The translations under genes were made by a program, and so were the position numbers. A stretch of DNA of 64,000 bases from Squalus acanthias (Eukaryota), in contig CM059447.1 of NCBI GenBank assembly GCA_030390025.1, positions 41,478,001 through 41,542,000 of the forward strand, in the 5' to 3' direction. Positions within the stretch are counted from its first letter, which is position 1. Each line of letters starts with the position of its first letter. The notes beneath the pieces were generated by a model. That model did no database searches. It saw nothing but the letters and a program-made list of their open reading frames with translations, and had not been told where the DNA came from. Positions 52,516 through 64,000 of the stretch are shown in pieces.

Positions 52516-55429
52516 TATGTACTCTATCTCTTTATCTAATCCTGGCCACCATAAGTAACTGCGTGCAAAACTCTTGGTCAAGCACATTCCCAGGTGCTGG
52601 TCATGAAGATCTCCTAACAATTTAGACCTGAACCTATTTGGGATATCAATCTTGCTCCCCACATGATACAATCTTTATCCACTGACAATTCATTCCTACG
52701 AACGAAGTATGGATGGATATCTTCCTCTGATACCTGGTTTGGCCATCCATTTGCTATGTAATCATACACCTTTGACATAATTGGGTCACGTTTGGTTGCC
52801 CTACCAATCTCTTCAGCTGTGACTGGCAGCTCATCAATGTATGAGAAATAGAACACTTCTTCCTTATTGGGTGTAACTTGTGATGGGGATGGCAACCTGG
52901 ACATAGCATCAGCATTACTGCGTTCAGCTGATCGTCTGTACTCAATGTCATACGTATACACTGACAAAATCAAAGGCCATCTCTGCATTCAGGCTGCAGC
53001 TAAGGTTGGAACTGGAGACTTTGGATGGAGGATTGCTGTCAGGGGCTTACAACCAAACTTCTTGACACCAAAAATCAATGACAAAGCTTCCCTTTCGATC
53101 TGCGCATAATTCCGCTCACTGGCACTGAGAGTGCATGAAGCAAAAGCAATTGGTCTCTCCTCCCCACTATCCAGTACATGAGAGATCACTGCCCCAACTC
53201 CGTACGGAGAGGCATCACATGCTAGCTTGACCTCCTTAGATACATCATAGTGAACTAACATGGTACTCGCTACTAACTGGCTTTTACACTCTTTGAATAC
53301 TGTGTCACATTTTTTTGACCACTTCCAAGGGACCTGTTTTCTCAACAGCTCGTTCAGTGGATGTAACAATGTCGCCAAGTTTGGGAGGAACTTTCCGTAA
53401 TAATTCAAAAGACCCAAGAATGATCGAAGTTCAGAGACATTCTTGGGAGTGGGTGCATTTCTCATTGCATCCAGCTTTCCCTTGGTTGGATGTAAACCAT
53501 CTTTGTCGACTCTGTGCCCGAAGTACTCCACTGAGTTTTGAAACAACTCACACTTGTGAGCTGTCACTTGTACTCCGTGCTTCTCTAGCCGTTTGAGCAC
53601 TTCATTCGACACCTCATCATGGATTTGCCTGTTTGGTGCTGAAATGAGTATGTCATCCAAATAATACACTACCCCTTCAATCCCTTACAAAATTTGGTGC
53701 ATCACCCCCTGGAATATGTTGGGGGCAGAAGAAACTTCAAATGGTAGCCTATTGAACTGATATAGCCCTCGGTGAGTATTTATAGTCAAGCATGACTTGG
53801 ACTTTTCATCTAACTCAAGTTGTGGTAGGCATTGGTTAGATCTAACTTCAAAAAGATCAGTCCACCTGTCAGCGTTGTGAACAAATCTTCCACATTTGGC
53901 AACATATTGGGTAGATTACACTCTAGAACCTGGTTTACGGTCACCTTATAATCACCACACACCCTTACCTTACCATCTGACTTAGGTACAACAACAATGG
54001 GTGTAGCCCAATTACTCAGATCTACCTTAGAGATAATGTTCTCAGTTTCTAGTCTTTTGAGTTCTTGCTCAACTTTCTCCTTGAGTGCGTATGGTACGGG
54101 ACGTGGCTTGCAGTAAACTGGTCTTGCGTCCTTCTGCACTCTGACACTCGCCTTGAAGTCTGGGATCGGACTGCCCGTTTCGCTGAACACCTTCAGATAC
54201 TGCTTGATGACATCATCTGTCGATGCAAATTTCGCTTCCACACGAAAAATCTCATTCCAATCCAGCTTCAGTGATCCCAACCAATTTCTACCTATCAAGG
54301 CAGGCTTGTTTCCTGCCACTACTATGAGAGGCAAGCTCTGACACTGATCCTTGTATTTCACTGGTATGGTGACACTTCCTACTACAGGGATTTGCTCTCC
54401 AGAGTAGCCTCGCAGCTCTACCTTCGATTTCTCTAGTCGATAATCACGCAACTTGTCGTGATATAGTGATTCTGGTACTACGCTCACGGATGCACCAGTG
54501 TCGATTTCCATGGGTATCCTGGTTCCTGCGACATCTACTTGGATGACGATACCTCGCGAATCGCTGTTAGATACCTTCGTGCGCCTGATGACGTGAAGCT
54601 CCAGAAACTCCACATCCTGTTGCTTCTCTTCAACGGTATGTAGTATCTGGCGATTTCTACTTCTAGCATTGCCAGTCGGTTTATTCTTCTGTCGGCACGC
54701 CTTCGCAAGATGCCCAGTTTTCTTGCAGTAGAAACACTCTGCCTTCACATATGGGCAGCTTTGAGCGATGTGTTGTCCCAGGCACCGATAGCACGACTTC
54801 AATGCACTGTTACCTTGGCCAGTTGCTGAGGCCTTGGGACCCAACTGCCTTTTACTTTTAGCCTGCAGCTGATTCACCTCGGTTGTCTGATGACTGGAAA
54901 TGGCGCGGAACTCTCGGGAGTATCGGTCGGCCATATCCATCGACATAGCTGTCTGACAAGCTAAGTCAAAAGTCAAGTTAGGGGTTGTCAACCATTTACT
55001 TCTGACACATTCATTTTTCAACCCACAAACAAAGTGGTCACGCAAAGCTCGGTCCTGAAAGTTCCGAAATGACAGTGAATGGATAGCTTTTTTAAAGCAA
55101 CAATGTACTCACTGGTACCCTCGTCATTTAATTGATCGCGTGTTCCAAAACGATAACTTTCAGCAATTTCCAGGGGCTCCGGACTGTAGTGCTGTTCTAA
55201 CTTGGTTAAGATCTCCTTCAGTGGTTTGTCCTTCGGCTTGGCGGGAACAAGCACATTTTTCAGGGTTTCGGACACCTCGGGGCCTGCTTCAGTCAAAAAA
55301 ATAACCCGTTTCATTTCTACAGTCTACATCATCGGGGACTTCGCCGATACTATTCGCAGTGAAAAACATTGCTAGCCGCTCCACATACGCTCCGAAAGTC
55401 TCTCCGTCACGATAGAACTCACCCAAGCA

Positions 55430-56927
55430 TAAGAACATAAGAAGTAGGAGCAGGAGTAGGCCATACGACCCCTCGGGCCTGCTCCACCATTCAATAGGAT
55501 CATGGCTGATCCGAACCTAGACTCACGTCCACTTCCCTGCCCGCTCCCCATAACCCTTAATTCCCTTATCAGCTAGGAAACTGTCTATCTCCGTTTTAAA
55601 TTTATTTAATGTCGCAGCTTCCACAGCTCTCTGAGGTAGCAAATTCCATAGATTTACTACCCTCTGAGTGAAGAAGTTTCTCCTCATCTCAGTTTTGAAA
55701 CGGCAGCCCCTTATTTTAAGATTATGCCCCCTAGTTCTAGTCTCACCCATCAGTGGAAACATCCTCCCCACCTCCACCCGATCAAGCCCCCTCACAACCT
55801 TATATGTTTCGATAAGATCGCCTCTCATTCTTCTGAATTCCAATGAGTAGAGGCCCAACCTACTCAACCTTTCCTCATAAGTCAACCCCCTCATCTCCGG
55901 AATCAACCGAGTGAACCTTCTCTGAACTGCCTCGAGAGCAAGTATATCTTTTCTTAAATATGGAAACCAAAACTGTACGCAGTATTCCAGGTGTGGCCTC
56001 ACCAGTACCTTGTATAACTGAAGCAAGACTTCCCTGCTTTTATACTCCATCCCCATTGCAATAAAAGCCAAGATTCCATTGGCCTTCCTGATCACCTGCT
56101 GTACCTGCATACTAACCTTCTGTGTTTCATGCACCAGGACCCCCAGATCCCTTTGTACTGTAGCATTTTGCAGTTTCTTTCCATTTAGATAATAACTTGC
56201 TCTTTGATTTTTTCTGCCAAAGTGCATAACCTTACACTTTCCAACATTATATTCCATCTGCCAAATTTCCGCCCACTCACTTAGCCTGTCTATGTTCTTT
56301 TGCAGGTTTTTTATGTCCTCCTCACTCACTGCTTTCCCTCCCATCTTTGTATCGTCAGCAACTTGGATACGTTGCACTTGGTCCCCTCCTCCAAATCGTT
56401 AATATAGATTGTAAAGAGTTGGGGTCCCAGCACTGACCCTTGCGGAACACCACTAGTTACTGATTGCCAACCCGAGAATGAACCATTTATCCCAACTCTC
56501 TGTTTTCTGTTAGATAGCCAATCTTCCACCCATATTACCCCCAATCCCGTGATTTTTTATCTTGTGCAATAATCTTTTGTGTGGCACCTTATCGAATGCC
56601 TTTTGGAAGTCCAAATACACCACATCCACTGGTTCCCCTTTATCCACCCTGTTTGTTACGTCCTCAAGTGAATTCGAGCAAATTTGTCAAGCATGATTTC
56701 CCCTTCATAAAACCATGCTGACTCTGTCCGATTAAGTTATGCTTATCCAAATGTCCTGTTACTGCTTCCTTAATAATGGACTCCAACATTTTACCAACCA
56801 CAGATGTTAGGCTAACTGGTCTATAGTTTCCAGCCTTTTGTCTACCTCCCTTTTTAAATAAGGGTGTTACATTAGCAGTTTTCCAATCTGCTGGGACCTT
56901 TCCCGAATCCATGGAGTTTTGGAAAAT
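55430..56927 (-). mobile_element. 5'-truncated CR1 inserted in the Gypsy gag
   Basis: RT motifs and 3' tail; AAGCA on both flanks; gag MAMPMGIIG|CLGEFYRD resumes across it. Confidence 0.92.
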
Positions 56928-57101
56928 AAGCACCCTATTATTCCCATAGGCATGGCCATCTGGACTCGACAGTTCAGCCACGTGTGCTCGAAAGTTATCT
57001 CTGATTTTTAAGTTTTTCTGCAAAGCGAAGAACCTCTAACAGTCCCTCCGTTGGTTGGCAGGATTATCCTTCAACAAAAAATTTCAGCTAGGGAATCGGC
57101 A

Positions 57102-58433: not shown

Positions 58434-59283
58434 CCTCCTCCCCTGAAGGTTCTGACTCTCACTGGGGTACAGTTCCATGGACCCCTCCTCCCCTGAAGGT
58501 TCTGACTCTCACTGGGGTACAGTTCCATGGGCCCCTCCTCCCCTGAAGGTGCTGACTCTCACTGGGGTATAGTTCCATGGGCCCCTCCTCTCCTGAAGGT
58601 GCTGACTCTCACTGGGGTACAGTTCCATGGGTCCCTCCTCACCTGAAGGTGCTGACTCTCACTGGGGTACAGTTCCATGAGCCCCTCCTCACCTGAAGGT
58701 TCTGACTCTCACTGGGGTACAGTTCCATGAGCCCCTCCTCTCCTGAAGGTTCTGACTCTCACTGGGGTATAGTTCCATGGGCCCCTCCTCCCCTGAAGGT
58801 TCTGACTCTCACTGGGGTACAGTTCCATGAGCCCCTCCTCACCTGAAGGTTCTGACTCTCACTGGGGTACAGTTCCATGGGCCCCTCCTCACCTGAAGGT
58901 TCTGACTCGCACTGGGGTACAGTTCCATGGGCCCCTCCTCACCTGAAGGTGCTGACTCTCACTGGGGTACAGTTCCATGGGCCCCTCCTCACCTGAAGGT
59001 TCTGACTCTCACTGGGGTACAGTTCCATGGGCCCCTCCTCACCTGAAGGTTCTGACTCGCACTGGGGTACAGTTCCATGGGCCCCTCCTCACCTGAAGGT
59101 GCTGACTCTCACTGGGGTATAGTTCCATGGGCCCCTCCTCTCCTGAAGGTTCTGACTCTCACTGGGGTATAGTTCCATGGGCCCTTCCTCTTCTGAAGGT
59201 GCTGACTCTCATTGGGGTACAGTTTCATGGGCCCCTCCTCACCTGAAGGTGCCGACACTGGTTGGGGTATGGGCCCATGGACA
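58434..59283. repeat. 50-bp minisatellite, about 17 units
   Basis: cctcctc(a/c/t)cctgaaggt(t/g)ctgactctcactggggta(c/t)agttccatgggcc. Confidence 0.97.
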
Positions 59284-59657: not shown

Positions 59658-61315
59658 TGTAGAATTCGCAAAATTATCGCGATTTTATAAAATAAGAAGG
59701 AGACATATAGTTTCGTACAAACAGCTTTATTTCAGCAGAATGCTGTCAGGTTTTCAAAGTGGACACAAACAGCCTGTAAAATGGCCGCCACGCCTCGTGG
59801 CAGAACGTTCTAGACTTTTCAATGAGCAGACAAGATGGCGTTCCAATAAACATTTGTGCGAGATCGGACAAGACTCAGCACATTTGAGATAATTCACAAG
59901 ACATAATGGGTTTGCATTTTACACATAAATACTGGAATCGGTCTCCCAGGTGTGAATAAGGGCTATTGTACCGAGCGATCAAGAACCCATCCAAAGACAT
60001 TAATATGCAAAATCCCCATGACTCTACGATGAGAGAGCCGTTTGCGGGTAGTTACAGAAAACATTTGGAAGCCCCAAAACCCCTCCAGGGAGAATACTGA
60101 CCGGTTCCACAATGGGAGAAGTATTAACGGGTACTCAGGCAGTTACAAGTATCACCGAAACCCATTAAACGGAGATCACCCTATACAAGAAATTTGAGCG
60201 CCAAAACCCTGACAAAAGAAAGACATTAAGATTGGGCGGGAAAAGAGGAATTACAGCACTATAACTGTAAGGTACAACCATCCATCTGTCTCTTGACTCT
60301 TGGATCTTGACTCTTGCTCGTGCCTCTGCCTCTTGATGTTTGACTTGCTGGAAGACTATTGAACTTTCTGATCCACCAGGATCAACCTCGTGGCTTGCCG
60401 CGAAGATCTGTGAAGAACTGGGCTGTGAAGCCTTGAAACGGGCACACCATCCCGAGAAGTCGGTAAACGGTGTTGGAACCGAAGGCCCGAGATGAGATGA
60501 GATGAGATGAGAAGAGAAGAAGACGACAATACGCATCGCCTTGGTCAGTAAGCCCCGACCGCGCCTGTAGGTCGAATAAACACTTTCCTTGCCCAGGAAG
60601 ACCATTCTTTGAGTTTTACAAACTGGCGAGGGCACAGGAAGACCATTCTTCGAGTTTTATCGCATCGGTGTGAGGGCACAGGAAGACTATTTTTTGAGCC
60701 GTGTCGGAACTCCGAGGACAACACAGATCTTCATGACAGCAGACGGTCCAGCCTGCTAGCCGGAGCAGAAACGAGTAAACAAGTGGGGTACAGAGACCCC
60801 TGATCAACACGTGGGTGGTCAGGTGCTGCGGGAAAAACATCCGAGCAGAGTTTTGGAATTCTCCGAGTTATCACGAGTGGTGAGCATGAGTCTCGATCCT
60901 ACAAATCTAGTTTAGGACAGGTATTGATAGGGGAGGGTTTAAGTTTTAAGGATAATTGTAATGTGTGCCCCCTTTTACGATGTGTCGTGCGCTCCTCGTT
61001 TCCCTAAAATTAGTTACATAACTGCGTGTAAGATTGTACTGTCATCAATCTGTGCTTATGACATGTATTTCGTAATCTTGAATAATATGCAATAAAGATT
61101 TTCCATTTCGCACTATTCAACCGGGTCTACCTGAGTTTTCTCTGCATTATTGCTCTCGCACCTAAGTCCAGTGTCAGAACCGTAAGGGCGAGTGGGTCGA
61201 ACCACTCACAGGTGTCTAGTGCTACCAGGCTGGCTGGAGACCAGAACAGGCAACAAGGCCTAACCTCACACTAGCACCCAGGCTAAGCACAGAGCCACAG
61301 GTCTCACCCCTTACA
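59658..61315 (+). repeat. 5' LTR of a second LTR retroelement (~1.65 kb; 5' boundary uncertain)
   Basis: Ends CCCCTTACA 5 nt before a PBS; ATTGG/GGCGGGAAAA and TATA-like motif at 60231-65; AATAAA at 60575 and 61091. Confidence 0.7.
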
Positions 61316-61320
61316 GAAAA

Positions 61321-61338
61321 TGGCGACCGCGGCAGGAC
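61321..61338 (+). other. Primer-binding site, tRNA-Arg(TCG)
   Basis: TGGCGACCGCGGCAGGAC is the reverse complement of GTCCTGCCGCGGTCG+CCA, the recalled 3' end of a vertebrate tRNA-Arg(TCG). Confidence 0.85.
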
Positions 61339-61391
61339 ATTGGCAGCGAGAAAATAATGTGTTAGACCCTGGTATGAATGGGCGAAATGTC

Positions 61392-63130
61392 ATGGAAGAG
61401 AGAATAGCAGATTATGTGTTTGGAAAGGTGAATTTGACCAAGAAATGGATAAGTGACCTGCTGGTGGATAAGCGTCCACTAGAGGCAGCCGAGAGGTGGA
61501 CAGATAGTAAGGAACATAAAAAAGCAGTGGAGAAAGCGGTCTGGCTGATGTGCTATAAAAGACAAGTCCAAATTTCAGACCAGGTCATCTTAGCGCAGGC
61601 AGCTCAGATCAAGAGTTGAGAGGTGGAAATGGATGAGAAGGTCGCGGGGGGGCAGCAGCTCATAGCGACTTTAAATGCGTTTGCATCAAGAACGCCAGTT
61701 AGTCGCCAACCACCATGAGGCAAAAATAGATTACCTCGAGTGCCAGGTCACTGAGGCAAAGTTAAATGAGGGCAGATTAAAGGAACGATGTGCCCACCTA
61801 GCTGCCCAAATAAAAGTCAGGAAGAGAGCTTAACAGGGGTTAGGGCGGCATATAAGATGGCCCTCGAGGATAAATTTCAGGGGGCCGATCACAGCGTCTG
61901 CCAAAAAGAGATAGGGAACCTTAAAAAGGCCTTGAACAAAGCGCACGGCATGGTGTGCCTTATCAGCCCGTCAGCACACCAGCCGCCAGTGGATGAGGGA
62001 TTTCAGAAATCCCCACCGAACAAAGCAGAGGAGGTACTAGCCACTGTGCCCCTCCGCGCCACCCAGCTATTCGGCAACCTGGGGTGAGGGAGGAAGTGGT
62101 AGAAGTAGAGAATGAGCCCACTGAGGTAGAATTGAAGCCGGGACCGTTGTGTCCGGTCACGGGTATCAAAAGGGGCCCGACCGGAGCAGGTGGGGAAGAG
62201 GGGGATCTCCTCAACCAGCTTGTGTTGCCTCACAGCTCACACCAGCTGAGGGTTAGATCAGTCACGTACGGAAGCTGGCTGAGTCAGACGACCCTTCCGT
62301 ACATTTCAGGGAAGTAGAGCAAACCGCAGCCATTAACAGCTGCGACGATGGGGAAAAAGCAAAAATGCTGTTGTTCTCATTAGACAGCTCGATCCTTCAG
62401 TGTCTCTCAGACGAGAGCAAGAGGGGAAACTAATACCTATGGGGAGCTAAGGAGATGAGGTCCTAGAAGTGTTGGGAATGGACGATGAAGGTCCGTTCGT
62501 TAGATTGGGACAAACAGTGCAGATGGAGGGAGAACCCCCGAAGGTTTTCGCCGACAGGTGTGGCCAGTATACCAGCGTAGCTGCCCCAGTGCGCCAGAGC
62601 GCGCCTATTTAAACGTGCCAGTCTAACTCATTGGCTCAGGTGTATAGTAGCCAACAGTTTGCCAGCCGTCAGGGAGCAGGCAAAAGCGTGGTTTGATCCC
62701 ACTAACCCCGCCACTACAGAGGAGTCGGTCCTAAATCGACTCACGGTAGGGTACCATAATACCAGGAGTGTACGGGAGCACGTCCCCTTAAGGGAAAGGT
62801 GCATGAGGCGCGGCCCGCAGCCCCGGCTCAAAAGCGAGTGGCATCAGGAGGGTAACCGCGCCCCGCAGTGCCAGTAATGCTTGTTACAGGTGTGGGAAGA
62901 CAGGGCATTGGCGCAAGAACTGCAGGAACCCTTGGAAGGAGTCCAGGATAAAAATCCCGCAGTCCGAGCCCAGGCGCCTGTCTCCGATAGGGGAGCTAGT
63001 GCACTTATCCATCCCGATGCGATCGAATCAGTGTTGGGAGCCATGCGCACCCTCATGATTTCGCATGGAAGGGTGGCAGTTGCTACCGGCCCCTGCAGAT
63101 GCCACAGCCCCGTCCAATAGTACCCAATGA
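61392..63130 (+). pseudogene. Gag-like polyprotein (N-terminal coiled coil, capsid-like region, CCHC knuckle), multiple frameshifts
   Basis: gtcATGG start; EKAKMLLFSL..QMEGEPPKVFADR capsid-like segment; CYRCGKTGHWRKNC at 62882-62923; ends ..NSTQ TGA. Confidence 0.8.
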
Positions 63131-63487
63131 CTAGAGCCCACGCAGCCTGCCTACCTGTGTCTTTTAAAAGACACGCACAGGAGGGGGTCTCCTGTGAGGA
63201 GGCCAGGTTAAAGAGCAGGCCTTGCGGGAGGAGAACGCCCGCTTAATAGGGAAAATAGATGGGCTAGAAGGGCAGCTTAGAGAGCAGGCCCTGCGGAGAG
63301 AACGCACGCTTAATGGGGAAAAGTAGACGTGCTCATGCTAGAAGCACAGCTCAGAGAGATTAAGGGCAGCCCACGGGGTAGCCAGAAGCAGGGATATTAT
63401 AAAATCAGTGCAAACTGTATAAGCCGGGCGCACAAGGGCCTACCACAGGGGCCAAACCTGCGAGTGGGGACTCGCAGCCCCAGGTAG

Positions 63488-64000
63488 GGCCACAGGGCAC
63501 ACAGGCAGGCAAAGCAGCTTGCATCAGGGGAGAGGACAATCCTAGAAAAATGTGAGATATTTTATTGGGGTTGGGAGACAGATGAGGAAGAGCTCGAGGA
63601 GCTCGACGAAGATAGTGACACAAGCGAGGAGGAGCTGGAATCGGAGGACGAAAGGGTCGCCCCCGATTCAAGTATAGGGGGGACAGGGGCTGCAGATAGA
63701 GATCCACAAAGGGTGGAGGCCGAAGCTGCAGGTCCCGAACGCAGGGGGGCGGAGCTAGGGGAGGCGGAGCCAGCCGCTGTGGTTGGACCACAGGGCGTGG
63801 CAATGGAAGCCTCAGAGCCCGAGCCGCCCGCCTTGAACGTCTTGCCCTCGAGGGAGGTAGGGACTGCGAGTGAAGGGCCGCCTACTGGGCCAAGTAGGGC
63901 GGTGCCACAAGCTGCAGATCCCGAGTTCAGGGAGGCGGAGTCAGGGGAGGCGGAGCCAGCGACTGTGGTGAGACCACAGGTCGCCACGGTGGAAGTCTCG
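63488..64000 (+). CDS. Unknown acidic, Pro/Ala/Glu-rich open frame inside the LTR element, running off the window
   Basis: No stop from 63488 to the end: ..FYWGWETDEEELEELDEDSDTSEEELESEDERVAP..; in-frame internal repeat with 186-nt period. Confidence 0.45.

Follow-up and report, generated by a model that had tools for sequence, protein, structure and literature searches.

Several described retroelements resemble the locus analysed here, each in a different respect. Snakehead retrovirus (SnRV) has a coiled coil in Gag, one zinc finger and suppression of the gag stop (PMC2717909), and SnRV-like endogenous retroviruses (ERVs) are known in elephant shark (PMC4422223, PMC4977317). Mouse IAP 1delta1 is non-autonomous: it is a deletion form whose in-frame fusion frame reportedly aids retrotransposition in cis (PMC6466679). 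The cattle ERVK[2-1-LTR] D-type, along with recombinant KoRV-A forms and MusD derivatives, offers a precedent for a cis effect and for defective ERVs that recombine (PMC10924933). Lokiretroviruses were proposed as possible relatives in the initial annotation of this locus, and the available part of PMC7947760 contains no report of them from cartilaginous fishes.

The locus lies in a 64,000-nucleotide stretch of the Squalus acanthias genome (G000:C24:41478001-41542000, genome 3.7 Gb), and "the window" below means that whole stretch. The initial annotation described an LTR element running off its end and called for extending it in search of pol, env and the 3' LTR. On the extended contig, env and the 3' LTR stand directly behind the frame that follows gag, which we call X, and pol is absent. 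The window copy is therefore LTR-gag-X-env-LTR, 9.4 kb long, and protease, RT and the integrase core are all missing from it. Its features within the window are as follows.

59658..61315, plus strand: 5' LTR, 1.66 kb, TG...CA, 98.9% identical to the 3' LTR.
61320..63130, plus strand: gag, with N-terminal coiled coil, capsid region and one CCHC knuckle (~600 codons in unbroken copies).
61321..61338, plus strand: primer-binding site for tRNA-Arg(TCG), 18/18 complementary to the 3' end (+CCA) of a host tRNA-Arg(TCG) gene.
63128..63134, plus strand: gag stop in TGA-CTAG context, a predicted read-through site, the context being conserved among copies and of a type that favours read-through elsewhere.
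63131..63161, plus strand: pol start, its first 32 nt (LEPxQPxYLC); pol-bearing copies remain collinear this far, to the left junction of the replacement.
63162..63400 (ends approximate in the window copy), plus strand: 236-nt insert with a Gag-like coiled coil and a 69-nt tandem duplication, missing from pol-bearing copies and aligning to the Gag coil.
63401..64000, plus strand: integrase C-terminal tail from xNQCK onward by its match to pol tails; acidic, Pro/Ala-rich, predicted disordered.
63710..63999, plus strand: tail duplication with 186-nt spacing, inherited from the pol-bearing lineage.

The element has two LTRs, a primer-binding site and a polypurine tract. The 3' LTR lies 7.7 kb downstream of the 5' LTR, beyond the window end, and the pair is separated by 12 substitutions and 6 short indels over 1656 nt, an LTR divergence that marks a young insertion. 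An exact 4-nt target-site duplication is found in 7 of 10 copies (two of the seven are near-duplicates); it is imperfect in the window copy and one other, and one of the ten has no 5' end. The gag ATG (61320) overlaps the primer-binding site (overlap region 61320-61338), and the primer sequence thus encodes the first Gag residues. SnRV is primed by an arginine tRNA. The 3' end of tRNA-Arg(TCG) has 424 matches genome-wide, with long tandem arrays (period ~1623 nt) at ~39.0-42.2 Mb of G000:C26. The best named relative of Gag is a skate protein (57% identity), as fits a cartilaginous fish.

Inside the 5' LTR there is a 28-nt repeat in three copies (60591-60703), and immediately upstream of it a tandem array of ~17 copies of a 50-nt unit (58434-59283). 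Further upstream, on the minus strand, are a separate element with broken Gypsy-type gag-protease frames, a CCHC knuckle and a DTG motif (53810-55572), and RT-bearing LINE fragments (55523-57035), which we take to resemble CR1.

The window copy carries an unusual load of short indels, and its X is consequently split into pieces in three frames. Over 5.55 kb it differs from another copy by 31 short indels, while seven other copies have 2-9 (six copies) or 20 (one copy) at similar substitution counts. Its gag carries 15 indels. Given that excess, some of its frame breaks may be assembly errors. In other copies the three pieces of X form one frame of ~369 codons which starts straight after the gag TGA without an ATG. 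The first ten copies, all chosen for carrying X, have the same layout throughout (10/10), with gag and X in common and the pol core absent.

All that the initial annotation described in X is present. Directly after the gag TGA (63128-63130) comes LEPTQPAYLCLLKDTHRRG, which encodes the segment LEPTQPAYLC. The heptad duplication is real, with units starting at 63213 and 63282, 69 nt apart (the annotation gave 63212 and 63281). So are the acidic frame, which starts at 63488 and is still open at the window end (171 codons; 251 on the extended contig), and the repeat within it, 63710-63813 versus 63896-63999 (81/104 identical, with a 73-nt core at 63725 and 63911, 61/73). A D(T/S)G protease motif, reported as missing, is found in none of the three plus-strand frames behind the gag stop.

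Relatives in the same genome account for most of this frame. Pol-bearing elements with gag 92-96% identical to that of the X-bearing form, and with matching LTR and primer-binding site, have pol frames of up to 1437 or 1496 codons; in a copy of a related gag family, B, the pol domains are protease, RT, tether, RNase H, integrase and SH3. Against these pol-bearing elements, an X-bearing copy aligns collinearly through the LTR and gag into pol, as far as its first 32 nt (87% to the closest one), and collinearity resumes from the tail through env (93%). Between these points, 3617 nt of pol have been exchanged for 236 nt, a difference divisible by 3. When X was compared with the full library by HMMER, there were two matches, and the strong one was an integrase whose SH3/GPY end leads into a tail corresponding to X from xNQCK on. 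This integrase tail runs ~240 nt beyond the window, and that part contains the motif RRSxRxPQPRKxW. The 186-nt-spaced duplication is present as both units in the 1496-aa pol tail and as one unit in the 1437-aa pol tail. By alignment among copies, then, the tail of X is derived from integrase and the junctions are placed.

The insert resembles the N-terminal coil of Gag. Its best match is the Gag coil of another related family, C, with protein scores of 64 and 71, above all 200 shuffles, and a DNA score of 47 against a shuffle maximum of 34. Matches to its own family's Gag are weaker, with 3-4 of 200 shuffles scoring as high for two targets. A pattern search for the exact Gag donor gave 0 matches, which puts the donor no more precisely than near family C. 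AlphaFold predicts one confident helix in X, at residues 22-81, and disorder in the remainder. As a source for X, the lokiretrovirus 'smc' gene was tried and rejected: in the PMC7947760 supplement, smc is the N-terminal coil of Gag. X thus consists of a pol start, a coil that is likely Gag-derived and an integrase tail.

The initial annotation had offered two other readings, an undescribed lineage, perhaps loki-like, whose gag and pol are separated by an accessory domain, or a non-autonomous element with pol replaced by cargo. Pfam returned no family above cut-off for X (a coil match fell below threshold), and a word-indexed search with residues 1-150 found no match among proteins of similar length, which is what an accessory domain or foreign cargo would give. 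Against this, X is directly followed by env and the 3' LTR, it maps onto the relatives' own pol and gag, and those relatives have protease directly behind the same stop. The insert occurs together with integrase in 0 of 30 loci of a divergent sublineage and in 1 of 20 ten-kb loci picked by gag, and RT groups with a viral record, L166, described below. For the window copy the accessory-domain or cargo reading is already refuted, and for the family we regard it as scarcely credible. What survives of the annotation's second reading is that the element is non-autonomous with pol replaced; the cargo part falls, with three-quarters of X being integrase tail and the rest pol start and Gag-like coil. 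The annotation also raised the prospect that other copies have a normal protease here and that the segment is a secondary insertion. A normal protease is indeed found in about half of gag-picked copies (11/20 hold pol), but the insert is a family-wide allele and not a one-off secondary insertion.

By RT, the pol-bearing parent groups with SnRV. The only viral-contig match for its RT is L166 (44% identical), and the RT of L166 in turn matches the SnRV RT printed in the PMC7947760 supplement. Across pol, alignment to L166 is at 33% along 786 residues (E 4e-110). A 28-row RT tree groups our family, L166 and frog and coelacanth proteins at 100/100, apart from 18 Gypsy-like rows; the rows include no labelled Loki, foamy or ERV-L sequence. 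Gag gave no significant match to L166 in pairwise comparison, and Env gave a long collinear alignment at 20% identity that is not significant (E 1.3). Like SnRV (PMC2717909), the parent has a Gag coiled coil, a single CCHC and pol in frame behind a suppressible gag stop. Unlike in L166, where the stop is TAG, the gag stop here is TGA, and the integrase tail is ~280 residues long as opposed to ~70 in L166/SnRV.

The suggested lokiretrovirus link is unsupported, as RT matches the SnRV group in a tree without labelled lokiretroviruses. There are shared traits: an N-terminal coiled coil in Gag, dual RNase H (tether plus RNase H) in the pol-bearing relative, and an Env basic cleavage site with a hydrophobic peptide (PMC7947760, available part). 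Dual RNase H is not diagnostic, because it is common to all retroviruses. The RT motifs, compared by eye, differ from those of the Loki RTs printed in PMC7947760 and are nearer SnRV. The one Loki Pol compared, Loki-Oja, also differs from ours, being fused to Gag without a stop and lacking a long tail (PMC7947760). Non-autonomous forms exist among lokiretroviruses and BHIKHARI elements too (PMC7947760; bioRxiv 2024.03.25.586437), but BHIKHARI, as described in the available part of the latter source, retain gag only.

The env gene (L013:5389-7920) lies just beyond the window. Env has no match to PF00523 (Mononegavirales F) in Pfam and none in a PDB sequence search, and its single-sequence structure model (pLDDT 33.6) is too low in confidence to use. 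There is a weak Ig-domain match near the N-terminus (E 0.16), and segments similar by eye to this Ig-like part occur in L166 Env and at the end of a frog protein, P0013.

X and pol occupy the same slot in a mixed population. Among 20 gag-picked copies, which came from the low-ranked end of the 150 gag matches listed, 10 had pol only (one of them partial), 9 the insert only and 1 both. The last (L117, G000:C3806:191479-201478) has a pol core and an insert within 10 kb, probably as two neighbouring elements, and was left out of selection counts. A divergent sublineage holds both forms, with 18 pol and 12 insert among its 30 loci. In trees of gag, tail and env, copies with X and copies with pol are interspersed, clustering no more than shuffled labels do. 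Because the two kinds of copy share gag, tail and env and intermix in this way, X behaves, in these trees, like one allele of the pol slot, transferred by recombination. Consistent with such movement, insert dS is 0.04-0.06 in two pairs comparing the divergent with the main sublineage where gag dS is 0.24-0.27; in the three other pairs of the five it is 0.08-0.22, nearer the flanks. Run contigs from four organisms cover the insert region, and in two of these (X5 and X10) there are contigs that span the junction of gag and insert; the cassette thus probably occurs beyond the Squalus acanthias assembly. That these contigs are RNA is a guess, and they are uninformative on expression.

The X frame is kept open in most copies. 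A first look gave 1463 insert candidates (not a copy count), and 59 of the 70 copies examined yielded an insert segment. Frame is kept across the insert in 57 of the 59, in seven in-frame length classes, with an in-frame stop in 2 of those 57; 50 of the 59 were chosen by likeness to X, which biases the set towards unbroken copies. The number of coil units varies from 1 to 3 among copies. In a working set of 57 (the 59 minus one near-duplicate and L117), X is open for at least 330 codons in 37.

Families B and C carry a different pol relic, again as one frame but without the coil. It comprises pol residues ~1-90 with a 6-residue gap, 779-856 and 1136-1170, plus the tail, so that four pol pieces and a 6-codon deletion are joined in one open frame ending in the tail. 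Among gag-picked copies it occurs in 6/10 of B and 9/10 of C; of these 20, 3 held pol and 2 neither. Many copies have private breaks, and 4 of 14 scored are open for at least 360 codons. The first 515 nt of the relic are 92% identical between B and C, compared with 68% for their gag genes, and the relic tail of family B is 96% identical to B's own pol tail. Sequence comparison thus makes the B/C cassette a second pol replacement, independent of X.

The strongest evidence for selection is the junctions, all of which are in frame in both cassettes. Beyond homologous crossover, we count ~6 junction or length events, all in frame, with a chance of ~1 in 700. This bears on the simplest alternative, namely that X is a neutral scar: one replacement fell in frame by luck, the shorter RNA had a copying advantage, and recombination with pol-bearing copies cleans the flanks. 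Such a history would fit the fully intermixed trees and a tail omega near 1, and changes in unit number and crossovers at homologous flanks do keep the frame automatically. However, nothing predisposes a junction between unrelated sequences to be in frame, and in two independent cassettes all of them are; we consider the neutral account quite improbable.

Substitution patterns are less clear. X-bearing copies exchange their flanks with pol-bearing ones by recombination, so purging in gag, tail and env is not attributable solely to the X-bearing form; for X itself, the test lies in the insert and the junctions only. Omega from shared changes is 0.39-0.48 in gag and 0.10-0.15 in env, no other part of the element being under such strong purifying selection in this family. 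It is about 0.54-0.77 in the insert (p 0.05-0.34) and 0.80-0.94 in the tail (p 0.09-0.43); the private-change control is uneven, at 0.64 to 2.3. The first 40 codons of the tail have an omega of 0.22 (p 0.013; one of seven windows, uncorrected). Shared changes in the insert number 15 synonymous and 21 non-synonymous versus 6 and 36 for private changes (Fisher p 0.01), and the same test on the tail gives p 0.39. Shared stops in the insert are zero, which is not significant (~1.5 expected), and an alternative-frame control (7 and 3 stop-touching changes versus 0) was discarded as those frames already contain stops. Shared tail indels are in frame in 5 of 6 cases and private ones in 9 of 18; shared frameshifts also occur in gag (1/2) and env (5/5), mostly as two-copy events, which makes such events noisy. 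Overall, the X frame is kept open, with weak amino-acid constraint except at one basic motif. One other reason for keeping the tail, an env splice acceptor, is disfavoured: the candidate acceptor is predicted ~280 nt past the X stop.

That motif, RRSxRxPQPRKxW, has a near-invariant core (its R, S, Q, P, R and W are the same in 53-54 of 54 copies, whereas adjacent positions vary), is common to all 7 aligned tails, and has a counterpart in L166, whose pol also ends in RRSPR. It is central to a further possibility, that Gag-X is a working protein: the second of its coils would assemble together with the N-terminal one of Gag, the basic motif would be a nuclear or chromatin tether (a role we assume from its resemblance to such motifs), and X-type copies could thus compete for capsids, or for helper enzymes. 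In favour of this, the insert was taken up in the reading frame used by Gag and was duplicated in frame, 1-3 units persist, and both the Fisher result for the insert and the motif speak for a function. On the other hand, the B/C cassette lacks the coil, which is therefore not needed for success; the insert signal is marginal against the mutation-spectrum expectation, the Fisher result leaning on an unusually high private ratio; and conservation of the motif may stem from pol-bearing copies via recombination. We think a working Gag-X protein rather unlikely, if the best of the alternatives.

How X could be translated is suggested by the gag stop. TGA is retained in all 57 X-bearing copies, as TGACTAG in 51 and TGACTGG in 4, and in pol-bearing relatives TGA-CTA/CTG precedes pol. 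A UGA-CUAG context favours stop read-through (bioRxiv 2021.04.18.440353), and read-through can protect an MLV-type reporter or retroviral RNA from decay (PMC4917968). Folding gave no stable RNA structure 3' of the gag stop (z from -1.1 to +1.7). One family C copy (L043, G000:C6:87447910-87457909, minus strand) has no gag stop and forms a single 1004-codon Gag-relic frame.

We therefore favour, with moderate confidence, the view that this is a pol-less SnRV-like ERV in which an in-frame chimera fills the pol slot, is likely translated by read-through, since the frame is open in most copies examined, and by being translated likely aids copying by borrowed helper enzymes. A template switch during reverse transcription would have put part of a related family's Gag coil in the place of 3.6 kb of pol. 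Co-packaging of X-type and pol-type RNAs could then carry the cassette into new sublineages at the homologous flanks. Read-through at TGA-CTAG would yield a minor Gag-X product where helpers make Gag-Pol instead, and selection would act mainly for a frame translatable to the old pol stop and weakly for its sequence. The benefit in cis might be stability or preferential packaging of the element's own RNA, as with IAP 1delta1. Any shielding from decay would presumably be partial, with ~4 kb of RNA still following the X stop. Helpers would supply enzymes to X-type copies and recombine with them, as cattle D-type ERVs do with competent copies; the many dispersed copies and their recombination point to such helper-dependent mobilisation in trans.

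Both precedents match this picture in part. Like IAP 1delta1 (PMC6466679), the X element appears to be an amplified, helper-dependent deletion lineage that keeps an in-frame fusion frame, and a cis effect here would be by analogy. IAP 1delta1 lacks env and has deletions in both gag and pol; the X element has complete gag and env genes that are under purifying selection, retains the gag stop and carries an inserted Gag-like coil in its frame. Like the cattle D-type (PMC10924933), the X element has had its centre replaced by a piece of another retroelement with the flanks kept, and frequent recombination with competent copies would give similar parasite-of-parasite dynamics. Unlike in the D-type, which has no intact genes, the frame stays open across the replacement here, and the cassette passes between sublineages. 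A literature search, with subscription journals mostly outside its coverage, found no description of a pol-less X-type form of SnRV-like ERVs.

A broader proposal, which we consider unlikely, is that the pol slot of SnRV-like retroviruses hosts mobile satellite cassettes of at least two origins. These would hop between sublineages by recombination and use the host-type UGA-CUAG read-through to make a Gag-decoy (an extra Gag coil plus a chromatin-type basic motif), with which enzyme-less genomes out-compete their helpers. What the copies described here add for SnRV-like viruses is a gag-pol boundary of the UGA-CUAG type and, in the integrase tail, a basic motif that is conserved. Defective ERVs able to out-replicate their helpers are thought to influence what becomes of whole ERV families, and the present case bears on why certain deletion forms prevail. 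Both of the independent pol replacements leave the frame intact between the gag stop and the former stop of pol. As these families have hundreds of comparable copies, population counts alone would suffice to test whether translation in cis selects for defective genomes.
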